Source of the DNA: Patescibacteria group bacterium
Lineage (GTDB): Bacteria; Patescibacteriota; Minisyncoccia; Phycocordibacterales; JAACPR01
Assembly: GCA_022711495.1 (NCBI GenBank)
Contig: JAKLEX010000001.1
Location: forward strand, 291,379-355,378
Reading direction: 5' to 3'
DNA: 64,000 bases
The translations under genes and the position numbers were made by a program. Positions within the stretch are counted from its first letter, which is position 1. Each line of letters starts with the position of its first letter. The notes under the pieces are model-generated. The model was not told where the DNA came from. It was given only the letters and a program-made list of their open reading frames with translations, and searched no databases. Shown piece by piece: positions 27,438-36,640 of the stretch.

Positions 27438-27656
27438 ATGGTTGTAAGAATGCGTAGCAATAGTTCTCATACGGGTAATCGCCGATCTCATATTAAATTG
27501 AGCAAGCCGGCGTTAACTCGCGACCAAAATGGCGCTCTATCGTTGCGCCATCGTGTTTCTCCGATTTCTGGAATGTACAAAGGAAAACAGGTTCTTGATT
27601 TAACTAAGAAGCTTACTAAGAAAGCCAAGAAGATAGAAGAGACAGAAAAGAAATAG
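27438..27656 (+). CDS. rpmF: 50S ribosomal protein bL32 (cysteine-free form)
   Basis: RRSHIKLSKPAL...LRHRVSPISGMYKGKQVL aligns with the bL32 consensus RRSHxALxxPAL..C..CG...LxHRVCPxCGYYKGxxV. All four zinc-ligand positions are substituted. Start taken at the MVVRMRS codon. Confidence 0.6.
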   Translation: MVVRMRSNSSHTGNRRSHIKLSKPALTRDQNGALSLRHRVSPISGMYKGKQVLDLTKKLTKKAKKIEETEKK

Positions 27657-27657
27657 G

Positions 27658-27717
27658 AAATTGGCAAAACACTTTTGAGAGACTCTCGCGTGTCTCGAAA
27701 AAGTGTTTTGCCAATTT
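27658..27717. terminator. giant near-perfect hairpin (about 27 bp stem) between rpmF and nusB; likely terminator/palindromic repeat
   Basis: AAATTGGCAAAACACTTTTGAGAGAC-tctcgcgt-GTCTCGAAAAAGTGTTTTGCCAATTT. A T-rich tract follows. The centre shares the core GCGAGAGTCTCTCAAAA with the element at 18535. Confidence 0.5.
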
Positions 27718-27768
27718 TCCCTTTACTTTTCTGTATAAAAAGTTAAAATTGTCCTGTACCTTAAAAGC

Positions 27769-28683
27769 ATGGCGAATCGGCACCTTTCACGATCAATAGT
27801 GTTGCAGTCTCTCTTCGAATGGGATTTTCGGGGAGATGCCAAATTTGATGTTGATGAAACTATTTTGCGCAATGCTACGGAATTTGCTCCGGGAATCAGC
27901 GACGCGCCCTTTATGAAGAAGTTGCTTGAAACAGTTCTGGCCAAAAAATCCGAGCTGGATAAAATTATTACCAAAGCCGCGCCCGATTGGCCCCTAGATA
28001 AAATCTCCATTGTTGATAGAAATATTTTGCGTATTGGTCTGGCCGAACTGCTTTTTGCTGACCGAGAAGAAGTCCCGTCTAAAGTCGCCATAAACGAAGC
28101 TATTGAATTGGCTAAAACTTTCGGCGGCGAATCTTCCAGTAAGTTTGTTAACGGCGTTTTAGGCGCAGTTTATAAAGAGCTGGGAGAGCCAGGTAAAGAC
28201 GAATCAAAATCCAAAAAGCGTCGCGATATACCTTTTGAACAGATGCCTGTTGAGAAAAAGGCCGGCGCGGTTATTTATTCTGTTCATGACGGAGGAATCT
28301 ATATTGCTTTGGTGCATGATGTTTTCGGCCACTGGACTTTATCAAAAGGTGGAATTGAGTCTGGTGAAACCGACGAGGTCGGGGCCGTTCGCGCCATTAA
28401 GCAAGAACTTGGTCTGGACATAGAAATCGTTGACAGAATCGGGGAGAACGAATACGTTGCCAATCATCCGGAAAAAGGACAGCACCGTAAGCAAGTTGTT
28501 TACTTTTTAGCCAAGTCCAAATTTGAAGAACTTAAATTGAGTCAGTCTGGCGGTCTTGATAACGCGCAGTGGTTTAAGCTGGCCGACATCCTTGACCTTA
28601 ATTTTTATGATGATATTCTGCCTCTAGTTACTAAGGCGTTGAAGAAATTAGCGGAAATAAATGTCCGAGTAACGACTACTTAA
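27769..28683 (+). CDS. nusB: NusB-NUDIX fusion protein (N-terminal NusB antitermination fold, C-terminal NUDIX hydrolase-like domain with degenerate Nudix box)
   Basis: The N-terminal 130 aa are NusB-like (SRSIVLQSLFEWDF...RNILRIGLAELLF). A lysine-rich linker follows. The C-terminus has GGIESGETDEVGAVRAIKQELGL, matching GX5EX7R.UX.EXGU with REUxEE replaced by RAIKQE. Confidence 0.6.
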   Translation: MANRHLSRSIVLQSLFEWDFRGDAKFDVDETILRNATEFAPGISDAPFMKKLLETVLAKKSELDKIITKAAPDWPLDKISIVDRNILRIGLAELLFADREEVPSKVAINEAIELAKTFGGESSSKFVNGVLGAVYKELGEPGKDESKSKKRRDIPFEQMPVEKKAGAVIYSVHDGGIYIALVHDVFGHWTLSKGGIESGETDEVGAVRAIKQELGLDIEIVDRIGENEYVANHPEKGQHRKQVVYFLAKSKFEELKLSQSGGLDNAQWFKLADILDLNFYDDILPLVTKALKKLAEINVRVTTT

Positions 28684-29379
28684 ATGAATTACAAAAAAAT
28701 AGCTGAAAAGCTCGGCGTAGATTTTAATGATGAGAGTCTGTTAAAACAGGCTTTTACTCACCGTTCTTATTTGAATGAAAACCGCGGCAGCAATCTTCAA
28801 CATAATGAACGTCTGGAATTTTTAGGTGACGCGGTTATGGAACTGGCTACAACCGATTACTTATATCGTAGCTTTCCGAATAAAACCGAGGGCGATCTGA
28901 CGGCTTTACGCGCTTCGCTGGTCAACACCCAAACGATTTCCAATGTCGCCAACGAGCTTGGTTTAAATGAATATTTGTTGTTATCTAAAGGTGAAGCTAA
29001 AGATCGGGGTCGTGCTCGACAATATATTTTAGCCAACACTTTTGAATCAATTATTGGCGCCATTTATCTGGATCAAGGGTACGAACGAGCCAAATTATTT
29101 ATTTATCAAAACCTTATGAGTCGATTGGAAGAAATTCTAACTCAAGGTTCTTGGATTGACGCCAAAAGCAAATTACAAGAAATAGTTCAAGAAAAATTAG
29201 GAATTACTCCGACTTACAAAACTATAAAAGAAGAAGGCCCGGACCATGACAAAAAGTTCACTGTTGCCCTATTCTATGGCGAAAAAGAAATCAATATTGG
29301 TCAGGGGAAATCCAAACAGGAAGCCGAACAAAGTGTGGCTCAGAAGGTGTTGCTGGAAGAAGCCGCTTCTTCAAAATAA
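28684..29379 (+). CDS. rnc: ribonuclease III
   Basis: ERLEFLGDAV is the RNase III signature. A C-terminal dsRBD is present. Confidence 0.9.
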   Translation: MNYKKIAEKLGVDFNDESLLKQAFTHRSYLNENRGSNLQHNERLEFLGDAVMELATTDYLYRSFPNKTEGDLTALRASLVNTQTISNVANELGLNEYLLLSKGEAKDRGRARQYILANTFESIIGAIYLDQGYERAKLFIYQNLMSRLEEILTQGSWIDAKSKLQEIVQEKLGITPTYKTIKEEGPDHDKKFTVALFYGEKEINIGQGKSKQEAEQSVAQKVLLEEAASSK

Positions 29380-29406: not shown

Positions 29407-31650
29407 ATGTACCTGAAAGAGCTAGAAATCCTCGGTTTCAAGTCCTTTGCCAAAAAGGCGAATCTCAAATTCAATTTTCCCATTTCCGCTATTGTTGGAC
29501 CGAATGGTTCGGGCAAATCAAACATTGCCGAGGCCTTTCGTTTTGTTCTTGGTGAGCAGTCTTTTAAATCCATGCGCGGGAAAAGAGGTGAAGACTTAAT
29601 TTTTAGCGGTACGCCGACTCTGCCCAGACAATCCCGAGCTTCTGTTAAACTAGTTTTTGATAATTCCAGAAAGATTTTGCCGGTTGATTTTGAGGACGTT
29701 ACCTTAGAGAGAATTGTTCATCGAGATGGCATAAATCAGTACATAATTAATGGCTCGGAGGTTCGCTTGAAAGATCTAATTGAACTTTTGGCCTCGGCCA
29801 ATATTGGTTCTAGCGGCCACCATATTATTTCTCAAGGCGAAGCGGACCGCATTTTAAGCTCAAGTCCAAAAGAGAGGAAGACCATGCTAGAAGACGCTCT
29901 CGGACTTAAAATTTTTCAATATAAAAAAGTTGAAAGCGAAAGAAAACTGATCAAAACGGAGGAAAATATCAAACAGGTTCAGTCGTTGAGAAGGGAGATT
30001 GCTCCACATATTAAATTCCTGAAAAAGCAAGTTGAGAAGATAGAAGAGGGCGAGAAGTTAAAGGGAACTTTGCTGACTTTTTACAAAGAGTATTTGAAGA
30101 CTGAAACCGAGTATTTGAAATCTAAAAAAGCCGAACTTGGAAAAAATATTGATGGTCCGCAAAAACGTTTGCGCGAAATAGCCACAGAAATCGCCGCTGC
30201 GGAAAAGTTAACGCAAAATCAAACTCATCATGATTTGACGATTAAGATAAAAGATCTAGAGAATCAGATCTCTTCTATTACCAAAGAAAAAGAAGATCTG
30301 TTGAAAGAAGATGGCCGAATTGAAGGACAGCTTTCTTCTTTAACAAGACTTATTGAAAAACAAAAAGCTGAAGATAAATCGGTCTCATTAACCAAGTCGG
30401 AGCTTAATGAAATTAAAAATAAAATTGAAGACCTTGATAAAGAATCCGCCGGAGCTTCAGACGTGGCCATTTTGCGAGAGGTTGTTAAGAAAATTATCAA
30501 TTTCGTCAAAGAGTTTTTGATCAGTAAAATAGCCGGTCATGGTCCAGTGGACGAGATGCAAGCGGAAGTCGAGAAATGTCGCGAGAGAAAAGAGGAAATT
30601 AATTCGGCGCTTGATTCCATAAAAAACCGAGAAAGTTTTTGCCGCGAGGAAATTAAAAATCTTCGACAAAAGTTAGATCAAGACAAATCAAGCTCTTTGG
30701 CGGCCGAAAAAAAGATTGTCACATTAATGTCAGAGAAAAATGACATTCAACAGGAGATTTCTAAACATTCCATTGCTATAGACACGCTCAATCGCGACGA
30801 GACGGCCTTCAAGCAGGAATTGACCGAAGCTGTTGTCTTGGTCGGTCGAGAGGTCTTAAATTACGAGTCTGCGCCTATTTCCGTCGAAAGCCCTGAAATT
30901 TCCAGAGAAGAGCAGCTTGAAAAGCGCAAAAAATTGGAACGCCTGAAAATTCGTGTTGAAGAATCAGCTGGCGGCGTGGTCAGCGAGGACGTCCTGCGCG
31001 AATATAAAGACGCGTCCGAACGAGATGAATTTTTAGCTCGGGAGATTGAAGACCTGGAGAAATCCTCTATTTCTCTAAAAAGTCTGATTGAAGAACTTGG
31101 ACAGAAAATTGAAACTAAGTTTCACGAGGGCGTAGCAAAAATAAACAATGAATTTCAAAAGTTCTTTGAACTAATGTTCGGCGGCGGTACGGCCGGAATC
31201 AAAGTTATAAAGACTGAAATCCGCCGAAGAAAAGAAACTGACTTGTCGTTTGATGAAGGCGACCTTGAATCGGCACCGGAGGAAGAAGAGGAACCAGAAG
31301 AGGGAATTGACATAAAAGTTAATTTGCCAAGAAAAAAGATAAACGGCCTGATGATGCTTTCCGGTGGAGAAAGAGCTCTAACTTCCATTGCCTTGTTGTT
31401 TGCTATTTCTCAAGTTAATCCACCACCGTTCATTATTTTGGATGAAACTGACGCCGCTCTCGATGAAGCCAACAGCCGAAAATATGGCGATATGATAGAA
31501 AATCTTTCCAAAAGTTCTCAGCTAATTTTAATTACTCATAATCGCGAAACTATGAGTCGCGCCGGTGTTTTATACGGAGTTACCATGATCGGCGGAGCTT
31601 CTCAGCTGTTGTCAGTGGCTTTTGACGAAGGAACTCAGTGGGCAAAGTAG
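29407..31650 (+). CDS. smc: SMC-family chromosome segregation ATPase (short, 747 aa)
   Basis: N-terminal Walker A GPNGSGKSN. A long coiled coil. C-terminal LSGGERALTSIALLFA signature with Walker B ILDETDAALD. An acidic insertion EEEEEPEEG is present. No obvious hinge glycine motif was found. Confidence 0.65.
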   Translation: MYLKELEILGFKSFAKKANLKFNFPISAIVGPNGSGKSNIAEAFRFVLGEQSFKSMRGKRGEDLIFSGTPTLPRQSRASVKLVFDNSRKILPVDFEDVTLERIVHRDGINQYIINGSEVRLKDLIELLASANIGSSGHHIISQGEADRILSSSPKERKTMLEDALGLKIFQYKKVESERKLIKTEENIKQVQSLRREIAPHIKFLKKQVEKIEEGEKLKGTLLTFYKEYLKTETEYLKSKKAELGKNIDGPQKRLREIATEIAAAEKLTQNQTHHDLTIKIKDLENQISSITKEKEDLLKEDGRIEGQLSSLTRLIEKQKAEDKSVSLTKSELNEIKNKIEDLDKESAGASDVAILREVVKKIINFVKEFLISKIAGHGPVDEMQAEVEKCRERKEEINSALDSIKNRESFCREEIKNLRQKLDQDKSSSLAAEKKIVTLMSEKNDIQQEISKHSIAIDTLNRDETAFKQELTEAVVLVGREVLNYESAPISVESPEISREEQLEKRKKLERLKIRVEESAGGVVSEDVLREYKDASERDEFLAREIEDLEKSSISLKSLIEELGQKIETKFHEGVAKINNEFQKFFELMFGGGTAGIKVIKTEIRRRKETDLSFDEGDLESAPEEEEEPEEGIDIKVNLPRKKINGLMMLSGGERALTSIALLFAISQVNPPPFIILDETDAALDEANSRKYGDMIENLSKSSQLILITHNRETMSRAGVLYGVTMIGGASQLLSVAFDEGTQWAK

Positions 31651-34656: not shown

Positions 34657-35298
34657 ATGAATTTCCATATAATCTCACTTTTTCCAAATTCCATGAGCTC
34701 TTATATTAAGGAGTCTATTATCGGTCGCGCCATAAAGGATAAAAAAATTAGAGTTAAATTTTATAACCCAAGAGATTTTACCAGGGACAAATGGCGCCGG
34801 ATTGATCAAAAGCCGTATGGCGGTGGACCGGGCATGGTTATTCAAGCCGAGCCGGTTATTCGCGCAATCTCCAAGGCCATTGCTCGAAAAAATAAATACA
34901 AAATTGTTTTTCTGTCTCCTGGCGGTAAGCAGTTTGATACTAAAACCGCTCGACAAATCGCCCAATCTATAAAAGATTTGGTAATCATCGCCGGCCGCTA
35001 TGAAGGGATCGATGAAAGGGTTAATAAAGTTTTTAAGACCGAGAAAATTTCCGTTGGTCCGTATGTTTTGACTGGCGGGGAATTGCCGGCCCTGATTTTG
35101 GTTGATTCAATTTCTCGCCAGATTGAGGGCGTTTTGGGCAACGATTTGTCATTAGAAGAACGGCGGATTTCTTCAAACAAAGTTTATACGCGTCCGGAGA
35201 TCTTCAAAATAAAAGATAAAAATTACCGTGTGCCAAAAGTTCTTCTAAGCGGTGACCATAAGAAAATCAACATGTGGAAAAACGCCGGTAACAAATAA
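34657..35298 (+). CDS. trmD: tRNA (guanine37-N1)-methyltransferase TrmD
   Basis: SPOUT knot motifs YGGGPGMV and IAGRYEGIDERV are present. Confidence 0.9.
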   Translation: MNFHIISLFPNSMSSYIKESIIGRAIKDKKIRVKFYNPRDFTRDKWRRIDQKPYGGGPGMVIQAEPVIRAISKAIARKNKYKIVFLSPGGKQFDTKTARQIAQSIKDLVIIAGRYEGIDERVNKVFKTEKISVGPYVLTGGELPALILVDSISRQIEGVLGNDLSLEERRISSNKVYTRPEIFKIKDKNYRVPKVLLSGDHKKINMWKNAGNK

Positions 35299-35371
35299 AG
35301 ACGCATTTTGCTCGTCGTGGTACAATATCCACATAGGTTTTTATAATTTAGTTCACAATATAATTATCCTC

Positions 35372-36640
35372 ATGTTTTTTTCTAGATCATTAAGACGAAA
35401 CACCTCAAAAGGTTTCACTCTCCTGGAAATGCTCTTGGTCATCGCCATCATCGCCATCTTAGCTGCTATCGTTATCGTGGCCATCAACCCAGCGCGGCAA
35501 CTAGCCCAAGCTCGAAATGCTCAAAGAGCTAGTGATCTCAATGCTATCCATAAAGCTGTCCAACAGTACTACATAGATAACCTGGAATACCCAGACGGTT
35601 TAGATAGTAGTCTGCAAGAAATCTGCAATACTGGCGGAGGAGAAGATTGTATTGATATTGAAGACGCTTTAGTACCAACTTATCTTTCTGCTCTACCAGA
35701 AAATCCAAATGGTGGTAATTACGAAATCGCTCTACAGACTGGCAACAAACTAGCTTTAGTTGCTCCTGGTTCAAAAGAACAAGGACTTGGCGGCATTGTC
35801 ATTGGAACTTCAACTTCGTTAGTTGAAGAAGAAGGTGGTGGAGGGGGAGAAGAATGTGATGTTACTGCTGCCGGATCCTATGACTCCGCTACTGATGGCG
35901 ATTACACAGTTTTAACTTTTGATGGGGCCGGCACGTTCACAGTTAACTCTGGTACCTGTGATGCTGATATTCTTGTTGTTGGCGGTGGAGGAGGAGGAGG
36001 GCAGAAACATTCCGGAGGTGGTGGAGGCGGCGGCGTTATAGAAGAAAGCGTATCTGGTTTATCTGGTGAAATAGGAATCTCTGTTGGTTCTGGTGGCGCA
36101 GGTGGGCCAGCTGGTGATCCTTATAATGCTGGAGAAAACGGCGGAGATAGCTCTTTTGGTGATGATTATATTGCAATTGGTGGCGGTGGAGGAGGGGGTT
36201 ATAGTACAGCAAATGAAGCCGGTGACGGTGGTTCTGGGGGAGGCGCCGGGCAGAATAATGATGATCCGCCAGGACTTGGTGAAGCTGGACAAGGTAATAA
36301 TGGAGGTGACGAGTCTAGCGGCCGAGGCGGAGGCGGTGGTGGGGCCGGCGCGGTTGGAGAGGACTCTGATGGCACTAACGGCGGAACCGGAGGTGATGGC
36401 ATTTCTTCTGATATAACAGGTGTCGCCACCTATTATGGTGGTGGCGGAGGTGGAGTTGGTCCATCCCAAGCCGCTGGCGGACAGGGAGGCGGTGGTTCTG
36501 GTGCAAATTACAGCGATGAAGGATCGTTTCCGGCGGAAGATGGAACGGATGGACTTGGTGGTGGCGGAGGTGGAGGTCAAGATGCCGCAGGCGGAGATGG
36601 CGGTGATGGTGTTGTTATAGTCCGATATATAGCCAGCTAG
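35372..36640 (+). CDS. type IV pilin-like protein with very large glycine/aspartate-rich low-complexity C-terminal domain
   Basis: A prepilin class III signal MFFSRSLRRNTSKG|FTLLEMLLVIAIIAILAAIVIVAINP is present. A pilin head domain follows (QQYYIDNLEYPDG). About 250 aa are made of runs such as GGGGGGG, GSGGAGG and GGDGGDG. Start chosen at the ATG at 35372 because the ORF's upstream part overlaps trmD. Confidence 0.65.
   Translation: MFFSRSLRRNTSKGFTLLEMLLVIAIIAILAAIVIVAINPARQLAQARNAQRASDLNAIHKAVQQYYIDNLEYPDGLDSSLQEICNTGGGEDCIDIEDALVPTYLSALPENPNGGNYEIALQTGNKLALVAPGSKEQGLGGIVIGTSTSLVEEEGGGGGEECDVTAAGSYDSATDGDYTVLTFDGAGTFTVNSGTCDADILVVGGGGGGGQKHSGGGGGGGVIEESVSGLSGEIGISVGSGGAGGPAGDPYNAGENGGDSSFGDDYIAIGGGGGGGYSTANEAGDGGSGGGAGQNNDDPPGLGEAGQGNNGGDESSGRGGGGGGAGAVGEDSDGTNGGTGGDGISSDITGVATYYGGGGGGVGPSQAAGGQGGGGSGANYSDEGSFPAEDGTDGLGGGGGGGQDAAGGDGGDGVVIVRYIAS
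35980..36600 (+). repeat. degenerate GGN-codon tandem repeats (low-complexity DNA encoding the Gly-rich tail)
   Basis: Reiterated ggtgg(a/t)gg(a/c)gg units occur throughout. Confidence 0.6.

Follow-up and report, generated by a model that had tools for sequence, protein, structure and literature searches.

The subject of this report is a gene in a stretch of 64,000 nucleotides, here called the window, from a Patescibacteria group bacterium (GenBank assembly GCA_022711495.1, contig JAKLEX010000001.1, positions 291,379 to 355,378 of the forward strand; all coordinates below count from the first letter of the window). The gene, nusB::nudix, encodes NusB joined to a domain of the NUDIX fold, and this fusion is real, ancient and clade-wide. 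The explanation that we favour, and put forward tentatively, is that its product is a NusB carrying a flexibly tethered, non-catalytic NUDIX module that binds ('reads') a nucleotide ligand rich in phosphate. NusB is the BoxA-binding partner of S10 (NusE) in the ribosomal RNA (rRNA) antitermination complex; it is universal and well studied, and we know of no accessory domain described for it. Across a whole class of bacteria NusB is here joined to a domain from a family of enzymes that remove 5'-phosphates and caps from RNA, and the catalytic residues of that domain have decayed while the rest has been conserved. Current annotation as 'NusB' only leaves the second domain hidden.

The fusion gene is one unbroken open reading frame (ORF) of 304 codons with an ATG start and a TAA stop. 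A first-pass annotation of the window, made from the letters alone, had described NusB as continuing in frame through a Lys/Arg-rich KKRRD linker into a NUDIX domain, and both the continuity and the linker (SKSKKRRD) are borne out. The gene and its parts are as follows.

27769..28683, plus strand: nusB::nudix fusion gene; a single ORF of 304 aa plus TAA with both Pfam domains and full-length homologs in at least 595 species genomes
27769..28182, plus strand: NusB domain, residues 1-138, all-helical
28183..28248, plus strand: linker, residues 139-160, comprising G-E-P-x-K, the Lys/Arg-rich SKSKKRRD and IPFExMP with Met159; from column conservation and the predicted local distance difference test (pLDDT)
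28249..28662, plus strand: NUDIX-fold domain, residues 161-298, of the type of the diadenosine polyphosphate (ApnA) hydrolases and RppH
28348..28416, plus strand: degenerate Nudix box GGIESGETDEVGAVRAIKQELGL, residues 194-216; from mapping to RppH E53/E56/E57 and NUDT2 E58/E61/E62
28552..28554, plus strand: codon of Gly262, at the position of the fourth Mg-ligand Glu (E-x5-W); from NUDT2 E110, and from RppH E120 by pattern

By Pfam, NusB spans residues 7-136 (E 5e-34) and NUDIX residues 179-279 (E 1e-13); the nusB equivalog model TIGR01951 (NCBIfam) gives 126.8 bits, above its cut-off of 88.35. An AlphaFold2 model (109 sequences) shows two confident domains (mean pLDDT 83.5), with helices across residues 4-138, the NusB half, and an alpha/beta/alpha NUDIX fold across residues 161-296. 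Residues 141-152 are disordered (pLDDT below 50) and the predicted template modelling score (pTM) of the whole model is 0.49; a fixed packing of the two halves against each other is therefore not predicted. By fold and by family hidden Markov model (HMM) the N-terminal half is NusB proper, with many columns invariant among homologs, and it is predicted to bind S10 and BoxA. Its first residues, MANRHLSRS, are at least 90% conserved among homologs, which marks the ATG at 27769 as the true start. For the identical protein (P0001, 294 aa) JGI calls the gene from GTG/Val11, and this public gene model is 10 residues short. In the linker an invariant G139-E140-P141-x-K143 is followed by a Lys-rich run and then by IPFExMP. 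Met159 of this last motif, where the NUDIX half starts (codon 28243-28245), is 93% conserved among the fused proteins, and it is exactly at this residue that several fragmentary gene calls begin. Met159 could be a relic of the start codon of an ancestral Nudix gene, or an internal initiation site giving a free NUDIX domain.

The C-terminal half belongs to the Nudix fold superfamily and is derived from its ApnA/RppH subgroup. It has the alpha/beta/alpha fold of the superfamily, and its nearest relatives by Foldseek and phmmer are the Aquifex Ap4A hydrolase (TMt 0.92), mycobacterial MutT1/Rv2985, the C. elegans and human (NUDT2) Ap4A hydrolases, Chlamydia CT771 and Ap6A hydrolases. The best matches in the PDB are 9cxx, 3i7u, 1kt9, 1vc8, 4ilq and NUDT2. 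The W-T-x-x-K-G lead-in to the box is also that of the subgroup, HWTLSKG of the window protein aligning with HWTPPKG of NUDT2.

The fusion is not peculiar to this genome. A homolog search over 5.8 billion proteins, covering NCBI, JGI, ENA and Logan assemblies, found both Pfam domains in all of the best 120 matches (about 300 aa, 64-100% identity), which disposes of the lost stop or frameshift against which the first-pass annotation had advised a check. Named matches among these 120 are labelled plain 'NusB' of Paceibacterota, Parcubacteria or Kaiserbacteria. A scan of GTDB, one genome per species, finds the fusion at full length in at least 595 of the genomes, which answers the further question of whether related genomes share it; the matches listed are all Patescibacteria of the Paceibacteria kind (Kaiser-, Adler-, Nomura-, Taylor- and Zambryskibacteria, Minisyncoccia). 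A search with the NUDIX half through 1.84 billion 50%-cluster representatives recovered proteins of fused length down to about 30% identity, and one such protein (P0263, NUDIX 31% identical) has a box reading CDGIKNELNI in the same gene context. A JGI metagenome contig of 552,797 bp matches the window, and no second nusB or NUDIX gene is present in the 64 kb. Variant architectures were also seen: one protein (P0128) has NusB and NUDIX with a Rho_N-like C-terminal tail and another, of 577 aa (P0201), has an extension of about 310 aa ahead of NusB and NUDIX. Among close relatives of the NUDIX half are a protein with sigma-70 region 4, a DnaA C-terminal helix-turn-helix and NUDIX (P0207) and a Ham1/ITPase joined to NUDIX (P0254).

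The first-pass annotation read the Nudix box as degenerate and the domain as a probable binding module rather than a hydrolase. The box is GGIESGETDEVGAVRAIKQELGL, exactly as read there. Against the consensus GX5EX7REUXEEXGU it retains G1, E7, R15, E20 and G22, and its pattern is G-x5-E-x7-R-A-I-K-Q-E-L-G-L, in which E16 is replaced by Ala209 and E19 by Gln212 and E20 is kept as E213. In E. coli RppH magnesium is coordinated by E53, E56 and E57 of the REUxEE motif and by E120 of a loop (PMC6061855). In HMM alignments NUDT2 E58, E61, E62 and E110 fall on positions 209, 212, 213 and 262 of the window protein, and RppH E53, E56 and E57 on 209, 212 and 213; HMMER alignments likewise put a Glu of the Aquifex Ap4A hydrolase and of MutT1 at 262, and for RppH, whose HMM alignment spanned the box region alone, E120 is assigned to 262 only through the E-x5-W pattern that it shares. 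The numbering of the RppH and NUDT2 sequences used reproduces the residues named in the papers. The window protein thus has A209, Q212, E213 and G262 and retains one of the four Mg-ligand glutamates. It lacks both the complete set of three REUXEE glutamates that marks the Nudix superfamily and the fourth Mg-ligand Glu that the ApnA/RppH subgroup carries six residues before a conserved Trp (Gly262), and for this reason the C-terminal half should not be filed as a hydrolase.

The same loss is seen across the family, to differing degrees. In a set of 233 non-redundant fused proteins none keeps all four Mg-ligand glutamates, 82 keep three, 95 keep two, 53 keep one and 3 keep none, and in 25 full-length standalone relatives all four are kept by 14 and three by 10. 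Position 262 is Gly in 228 of the 233 fused proteins and Glu in 14 of the 25 standalone relatives. A fully canonical box (E7, R15, E16, E19 and E20) is present in 72 of 238 fused proteins as against 24 of 31 standalone relatives; the degeneracy noted at first holds for the window protein but is not a constant of the family. The changes in the window protein have close parallels among proteins of established inactivity. The E58A mutant of NUDT2, equivalent to Ala209, is inactive (PMC8616924), as are NUDT9 with a RILGEE box and the NUDT9-H domain of human TRPM2 with RILRQE (PMC6461439). With three of the four Mg-binding glutamates lost, the NUDIX half is most likely without hydrolysis, and that it works as a canonical hydrolase is very unlikely from its residues.

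The pattern of variation at these positions points in the same direction. Position 209 has an entropy of 2.4 bits, ranking 25th of 137 positions, and is occupied by E (39%), A (24%), K (13%) and V (11%), then by S and I. On a neighbour-joining tree built without the box columns, parsimony requires at least 41 changes between E and non-E at position 209 (with shuffled tips, mean 72 and minimum 60) and 34 changes at position 212; W189, K193, F186 and W268 require 0-2. In a check that uses no tree, 248 of 504 close pairs (Kimura distance below 0.15) differ at position 209 and none differs at W189, K193 or W268. This high variability, with flips between close relatives, indicates that catalysis is not what is selected across the family.

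The rest of the domain is held by selection. Within the RAIK(Q/S)E clade, made up of the window and two related loci (L001 and L002), the NUDIX half has pN (nonsynonymous) 0.06-0.11 and pS (synonymous) 0.61-0.73, giving a dN/dS of 0.045-0.062, which is indistinguishable from the 0.040-0.060 of the NusB half, the ratios being rough with dS near saturation. The NUDIX half is under strong purifying selection and is still functional. Near-invariant residues in the fused proteins include W189, K193, K241, W268 and Y280. In alignments with NUDT2 the window residues H188, W189, K193, Y229 and K241 pair with H37, W38, K42, Y82 and K89, and Y280 pairs with Y121 of the C. elegans Ap4A hydrolase. The residues that align with the substrate site are conserved to the same degree whether the box is canonical or degenerate, and a conserved basic set (K211, K236/K238 and R240) is also present in the NUDIX half. 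The view that the domain is probably a binding module is thus upheld, and strengthened by Gly262, by the hypervariability of E16 and by purifying selection.

In the explanation favoured here, an enzyme of the ApnA-hydrolase/RppH type would have been joined to NusB in the ancestor of the clade and would have lost the fourth Mg ligand early. The domain would since have been kept for a property other than hydrolysis, the box glutamates drifting except for E20 (E213), which may be retained for structure or for Mg-mediated binding of a ligand. The old active site would bind a phosphate-rich nucleotide ligand, for which the favoured candidate is the 5'-tri- or diphosphate or the Np4-capped end of the nascent BoxA-bearing leader RNA; a free nucleotide, ApnA or (p)ppGpp, would be the alternative. 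RppH also binds NTPs and (p)ppGpp (PMC7144940). What makes the 5' end of the BoxA leader the most attractive ligand is the RNA-binding partner, the basic character of the linker and the activity of the parent family on 5' ends of RNA. With the ligand bound, NusB would have a second point of anchoring or sensing in the co-transcriptional folding of rRNA and its cleavage by RNase III. The binding of a ligand, its identity and the link to rRNA processing, like the coupling to antitermination suggested by the first-pass annotation, are all steps that we infer. Should the domain indeed read the 5' end of an RNA or a nucleotide of the alarmone kind, rRNA transcription and processing would have a regulatory input that is new, and the case would show how the ultra-small bacteria of the Candidate Phyla Radiation (CPR), which are without many canonical regulators, organise ribosome biogenesis. 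The family also offers a clean natural transition from enzyme to pseudoenzyme, with active-looking and dead-looking orthologs side by side and accessible to experiment.

A more specific form of this proposal, which we regard as rather improbable in its full detail, is that the NUDIX domain is a dedicated 5'-end reader that forms a two-point clamp with NusB-S10 on BoxA. Such a clamp would hold the leader on the polymerase, replace the SuhB loop and present the leader-trailer helix to RNase III. If true, it would be a previously unknown, CPR-specific coupling of rRNA transcription to processing, built from an RppH-like pseudo-enzyme.

Several points weigh against the reader explanation. The assignment of H188, W189, K193, K241 and Y280 as putative phosphate or base contacts comes from sequence alignment with Ap4A hydrolases; residues that align with the ligand site could instead be conserved for fold stability or as a protein interface. 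Neither an rRNA operon nor a BoxA is present in the window, where an Rfam scan gave only three tRNAs, and the finding of no plain nusB besides the fusion covers the 64 kb of the window out of a contig of about 0.55 Mb. About 30% of fused members retain canonical REUxEE, and conserved Asp264 and Asp265 near Gly262 are candidate substitutes for the missing fourth ligand; for these two reasons some members, conceivably including the window protein, may keep a weak or altered catalysis. The catalytic base is also known to vary among Nudix enzymes (PMC4974056).

In a different reading the NUDIX fold is purely a protein-protein subunit of an antitermination or rRNA-chaperone complex, similar to SuhB, for example bridging NusB-S10-BoxA to RNA polymerase, NusA or NusG, with no small molecule or RNA end as its ligand. 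We consider this unlikely, but it is a serious alternative. It would account for catalytic positions that vary freely while residues specific to the fused proteins are invariant (V182, H183, F186, L191, N227, A231, P234, G237, Y245, G262, L263, F269, L277 and D282), and the fused family does have motifs without counterpart in standalone relatives (VHDxFG, NEYxA, P234, G237, Y245, GGLD and LNFYxDILP). However, W189, K193, E200, R208, E213, K241, W268 and Y280, which are shared with active ApnA hydrolases, are equally conserved, and since they lie around the substrate site of those enzymes a pure scaffold would not obviously need them. The AlphaFold2 model, with a pTM of 0.49, also shows no fixed contact with the NusB half.

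The NUDIX half might alternatively be an active tethered enzyme, an RNA 5'-pyrophosphohydrolase or an ApnA/(p)ppGpp hydrolase, that NusB delivers to BoxA transcripts, where it would turn the 5'-PPP of the leader to 5'-P and so license processing that depends on the 5' end. Its closest relatives hydrolyse ApnA, and NUDT2 and RppH remove phosphates from 5'-PPP RNA (PMC8616924). G194, E200, R208 and E213 are well conserved, the 72 fused members with a canonical box have been noted above, Asp264 and Asp265 might supply a substitute ligand, and the ancestral fusion was plausibly active. For the window protein, with one Mg-ligand glutamate of four in a family where no member keeps all of them, this is nevertheless a poor prospect. 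A209 corresponds to the inactivating NUDT2 substitution, the boxes RILGEE and RILRQE are inactive in NUDT9 and TRPM2, and position 209 lies in the most variable fifth of positions, which is incompatible with family-wide selection for catalysis.

It is very hard to sustain the idea that the domain is a decaying passenger, a housekeeping Nudix gene fused by chance in a streamlined genome and degenerating without function. The catalytic residues have indeed eroded by many independent substitutions, and one locus has an in-frame stop between the halves (L087, NCBI JACCDV010735530.1, 542-1459). Against this, the dN/dS of the NUDIX half, about 0.05, equals that of the NusB half, dozens of residues are invariant over at least 233 non-redundant sequences, and the domain is retained in hundreds of species at identities down to about 30%. 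The L087 locus is annotated as nusB (133 aa) and nudix (141 aa), but the two form one reading frame in which a lone TAA replaces the invariant Tyr135, with linker and NUDIX motifs intact beyond it; the stop is therefore a recent nonsense mutation or a sequencing error, and L087 was rejected as an ancestral split. No genuine two-gene state was found that would represent separate nusB and nudix ancestors, the short representatives that start at Met159 being explained otherwise. A further candidate for a split gene (P0123) is a fragment that lies at one end of its contig of 992 bp, and a canonical standalone relative (P0222) is uninformative, being from a non-CPR genome and surrounded by unrelated metabolic genes. 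That nusB and nudix were merged by a sequencing or annotation error has only its prior probability and the short two-gene L087 contig to commend it and can be set aside, a frameshift or lost stop being ruled out by the continuous ORF and by the same linker (G-E-P-x-K, IPFExMP) in hundreds of independent NCBI, JGI, ENA and Logan assemblies, and L087 itself being a single frame.

The genes next to the fusion gene in the window, and a predicted RNA structure, are as follows.

27438..27656, plus strand: rpmF (ribosomal protein L32), the conserved upstream neighbour; from Pfam and a JGI gene call
27656..27719, plus strand: strong hairpin (21+5 bp) followed by a U-rich tract; minimum free energy -40.2 kcal/mol, z -7.2
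28684..29379, plus strand: rnc (RNase III), with Pfam Ribonuclease_3 and dsrm, the conserved downstream partner

The abutment to rnc reported by the first-pass annotation is correct for the window, where rnc starts (ATG, 28684) at the first base after the TAA of the fusion gene (28681-28683), but direct abutment is specific to this genome and it is the adjacency alone that is conserved. The rnc gene lies immediately downstream of the fusion gene in all 80 loci examined, with gaps of varying size, and rpmF lies upstream in nearly all of them. The usual order, again in nearly all 80, is dnaE(-), rnhB, rpmF, nusB::nudix, rnc and smc, and divergent fused members, P0263 among them, keep dnaE and rnhB, then (rpmF), nusB::nudix and rnc. 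The adjacency of rnc fits the established functional axis between NusB and RNase III. Mutations in rnc suppress nusB defects (PMC4807359), and the NusB-containing rrnTAC loops the leader to RNA polymerase and boosts co-transcriptional cleavage by RNase III (bioRxiv 10.64898/2026.03.17.712431). The hairpin begins at the stop codon of rpmF, and none of 200 shuffled sequences folds as well; in related loci stems of at least 12 bp are found in the rpmF-nusB spacer in 25 of 73, and such hairpins are thus frequent but not uniform. The hairpin could be the terminator of rpmF or an RNase III-type processing or autoregulatory site of the rnc transcript.

The fusion gene stands in a dense block of information-processing genes (21657-45535) that comprises thrS(-), dnaE(-), rnhB, rpmF, nusB::nudix, rnc, smc, RNase R(-), rpsP, trmD, rpoB, rpoC and dnaG and also holds a type IV pilin-like gene with a glycine-rich domain (35252-36640). 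The smc gene (29407-31650, plus strand) encodes 747 aa, as against about 1,100-1,200 aa in a typical bacterial SMC, and retains both halves of the head, with Walker A at the N-terminus and the LSGGE signature and Walker B at the C-terminus. A size of about 2.2 kb recurs in related loci, which suggests that the coiled coil of SMC is much shortened in Paceibacteria.

The fusion protein lies within known categories, and it is real and widespread. Its architecture appears to be undescribed: literature searches on a NusB-NUDIX protein, on Nudix in Parcubacteria and on SuhB in CPR bacteria found nothing relevant. The first-pass annotation called it unusual, which is so by comparison with model organisms and the literature but not within the Paceibacteria, where it is the normal NusB of hundreds of species. 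Characterised NusB proteins (E. coli, Aquifex, T. maritima and M. tuberculosis) are single-domain proteins of 139-156 aa, to which the window protein adds a basic, conserved linker (about 22 aa) and the NUDIX domain (about 140 aa). RsmB/Fmu, the 16S rRNA m5C967 methyltransferase, joins a NusB-like paralog to an active methyltransferase and is a precedent for fusion to an enzyme fold, although the N-terminal half of the window protein is NusB proper at the equivalog level. SuhB resembles the NUDIX half in being an enzyme fold within an rRNA complex that contains NusB, with an axis to RNase III (PMC4807359), but it is a separate protein of inositol-monophosphatase fold and there is no homology.

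On the NUDIX side, the ApnA hydrolases and RppH (Aquifex aq_158, Thermus Ndx1, Rv2985/MutT1, CT771, NUDT2 and RppH) are of the same subgroup as the domain described here, which differs from them in the loss of three of the four Mg-ligand glutamates, in its fusion to NusB and in its own invariant motifs. The combination of a degenerate motif, purifying selection and a fused effector places it with the non-catalytic NUDIX sensors, a functional class and not a homologous family. The sensor domains of NrtR, AraR and NadQ, which are structural neighbours of the window NUDIX, are non-catalytic, are joined to a winged-helix DNA-binding domain and have as ligands ADP-ribose (ADPR), sugars and NAD-related compounds; in the window protein the partner is instead an RNA-binding elongation factor and the NUDIX domain is of the ApnA/RppH type. 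Human TRPM2 NUDT9-H is inactive and yet binds its ligand, ADPR, while its invertebrate orthologs are canonical and active (PMC6461439; PMC4974056). As in the window protein, this NUDIX domain is fused to an effector and the same two glutamates are replaced with the last one kept (RILRQE against RAIKQE), and as in the fused family the box is canonical in some lineages and degenerate in others. TRPM2 differs in being eukaryotic, in its ion-channel partner and in belonging to the ADPR pyrophosphatase subfamily, and its loss occurred once, at the root of the vertebrates, whereas the box residues of NusB::NUDIX have changed many times.

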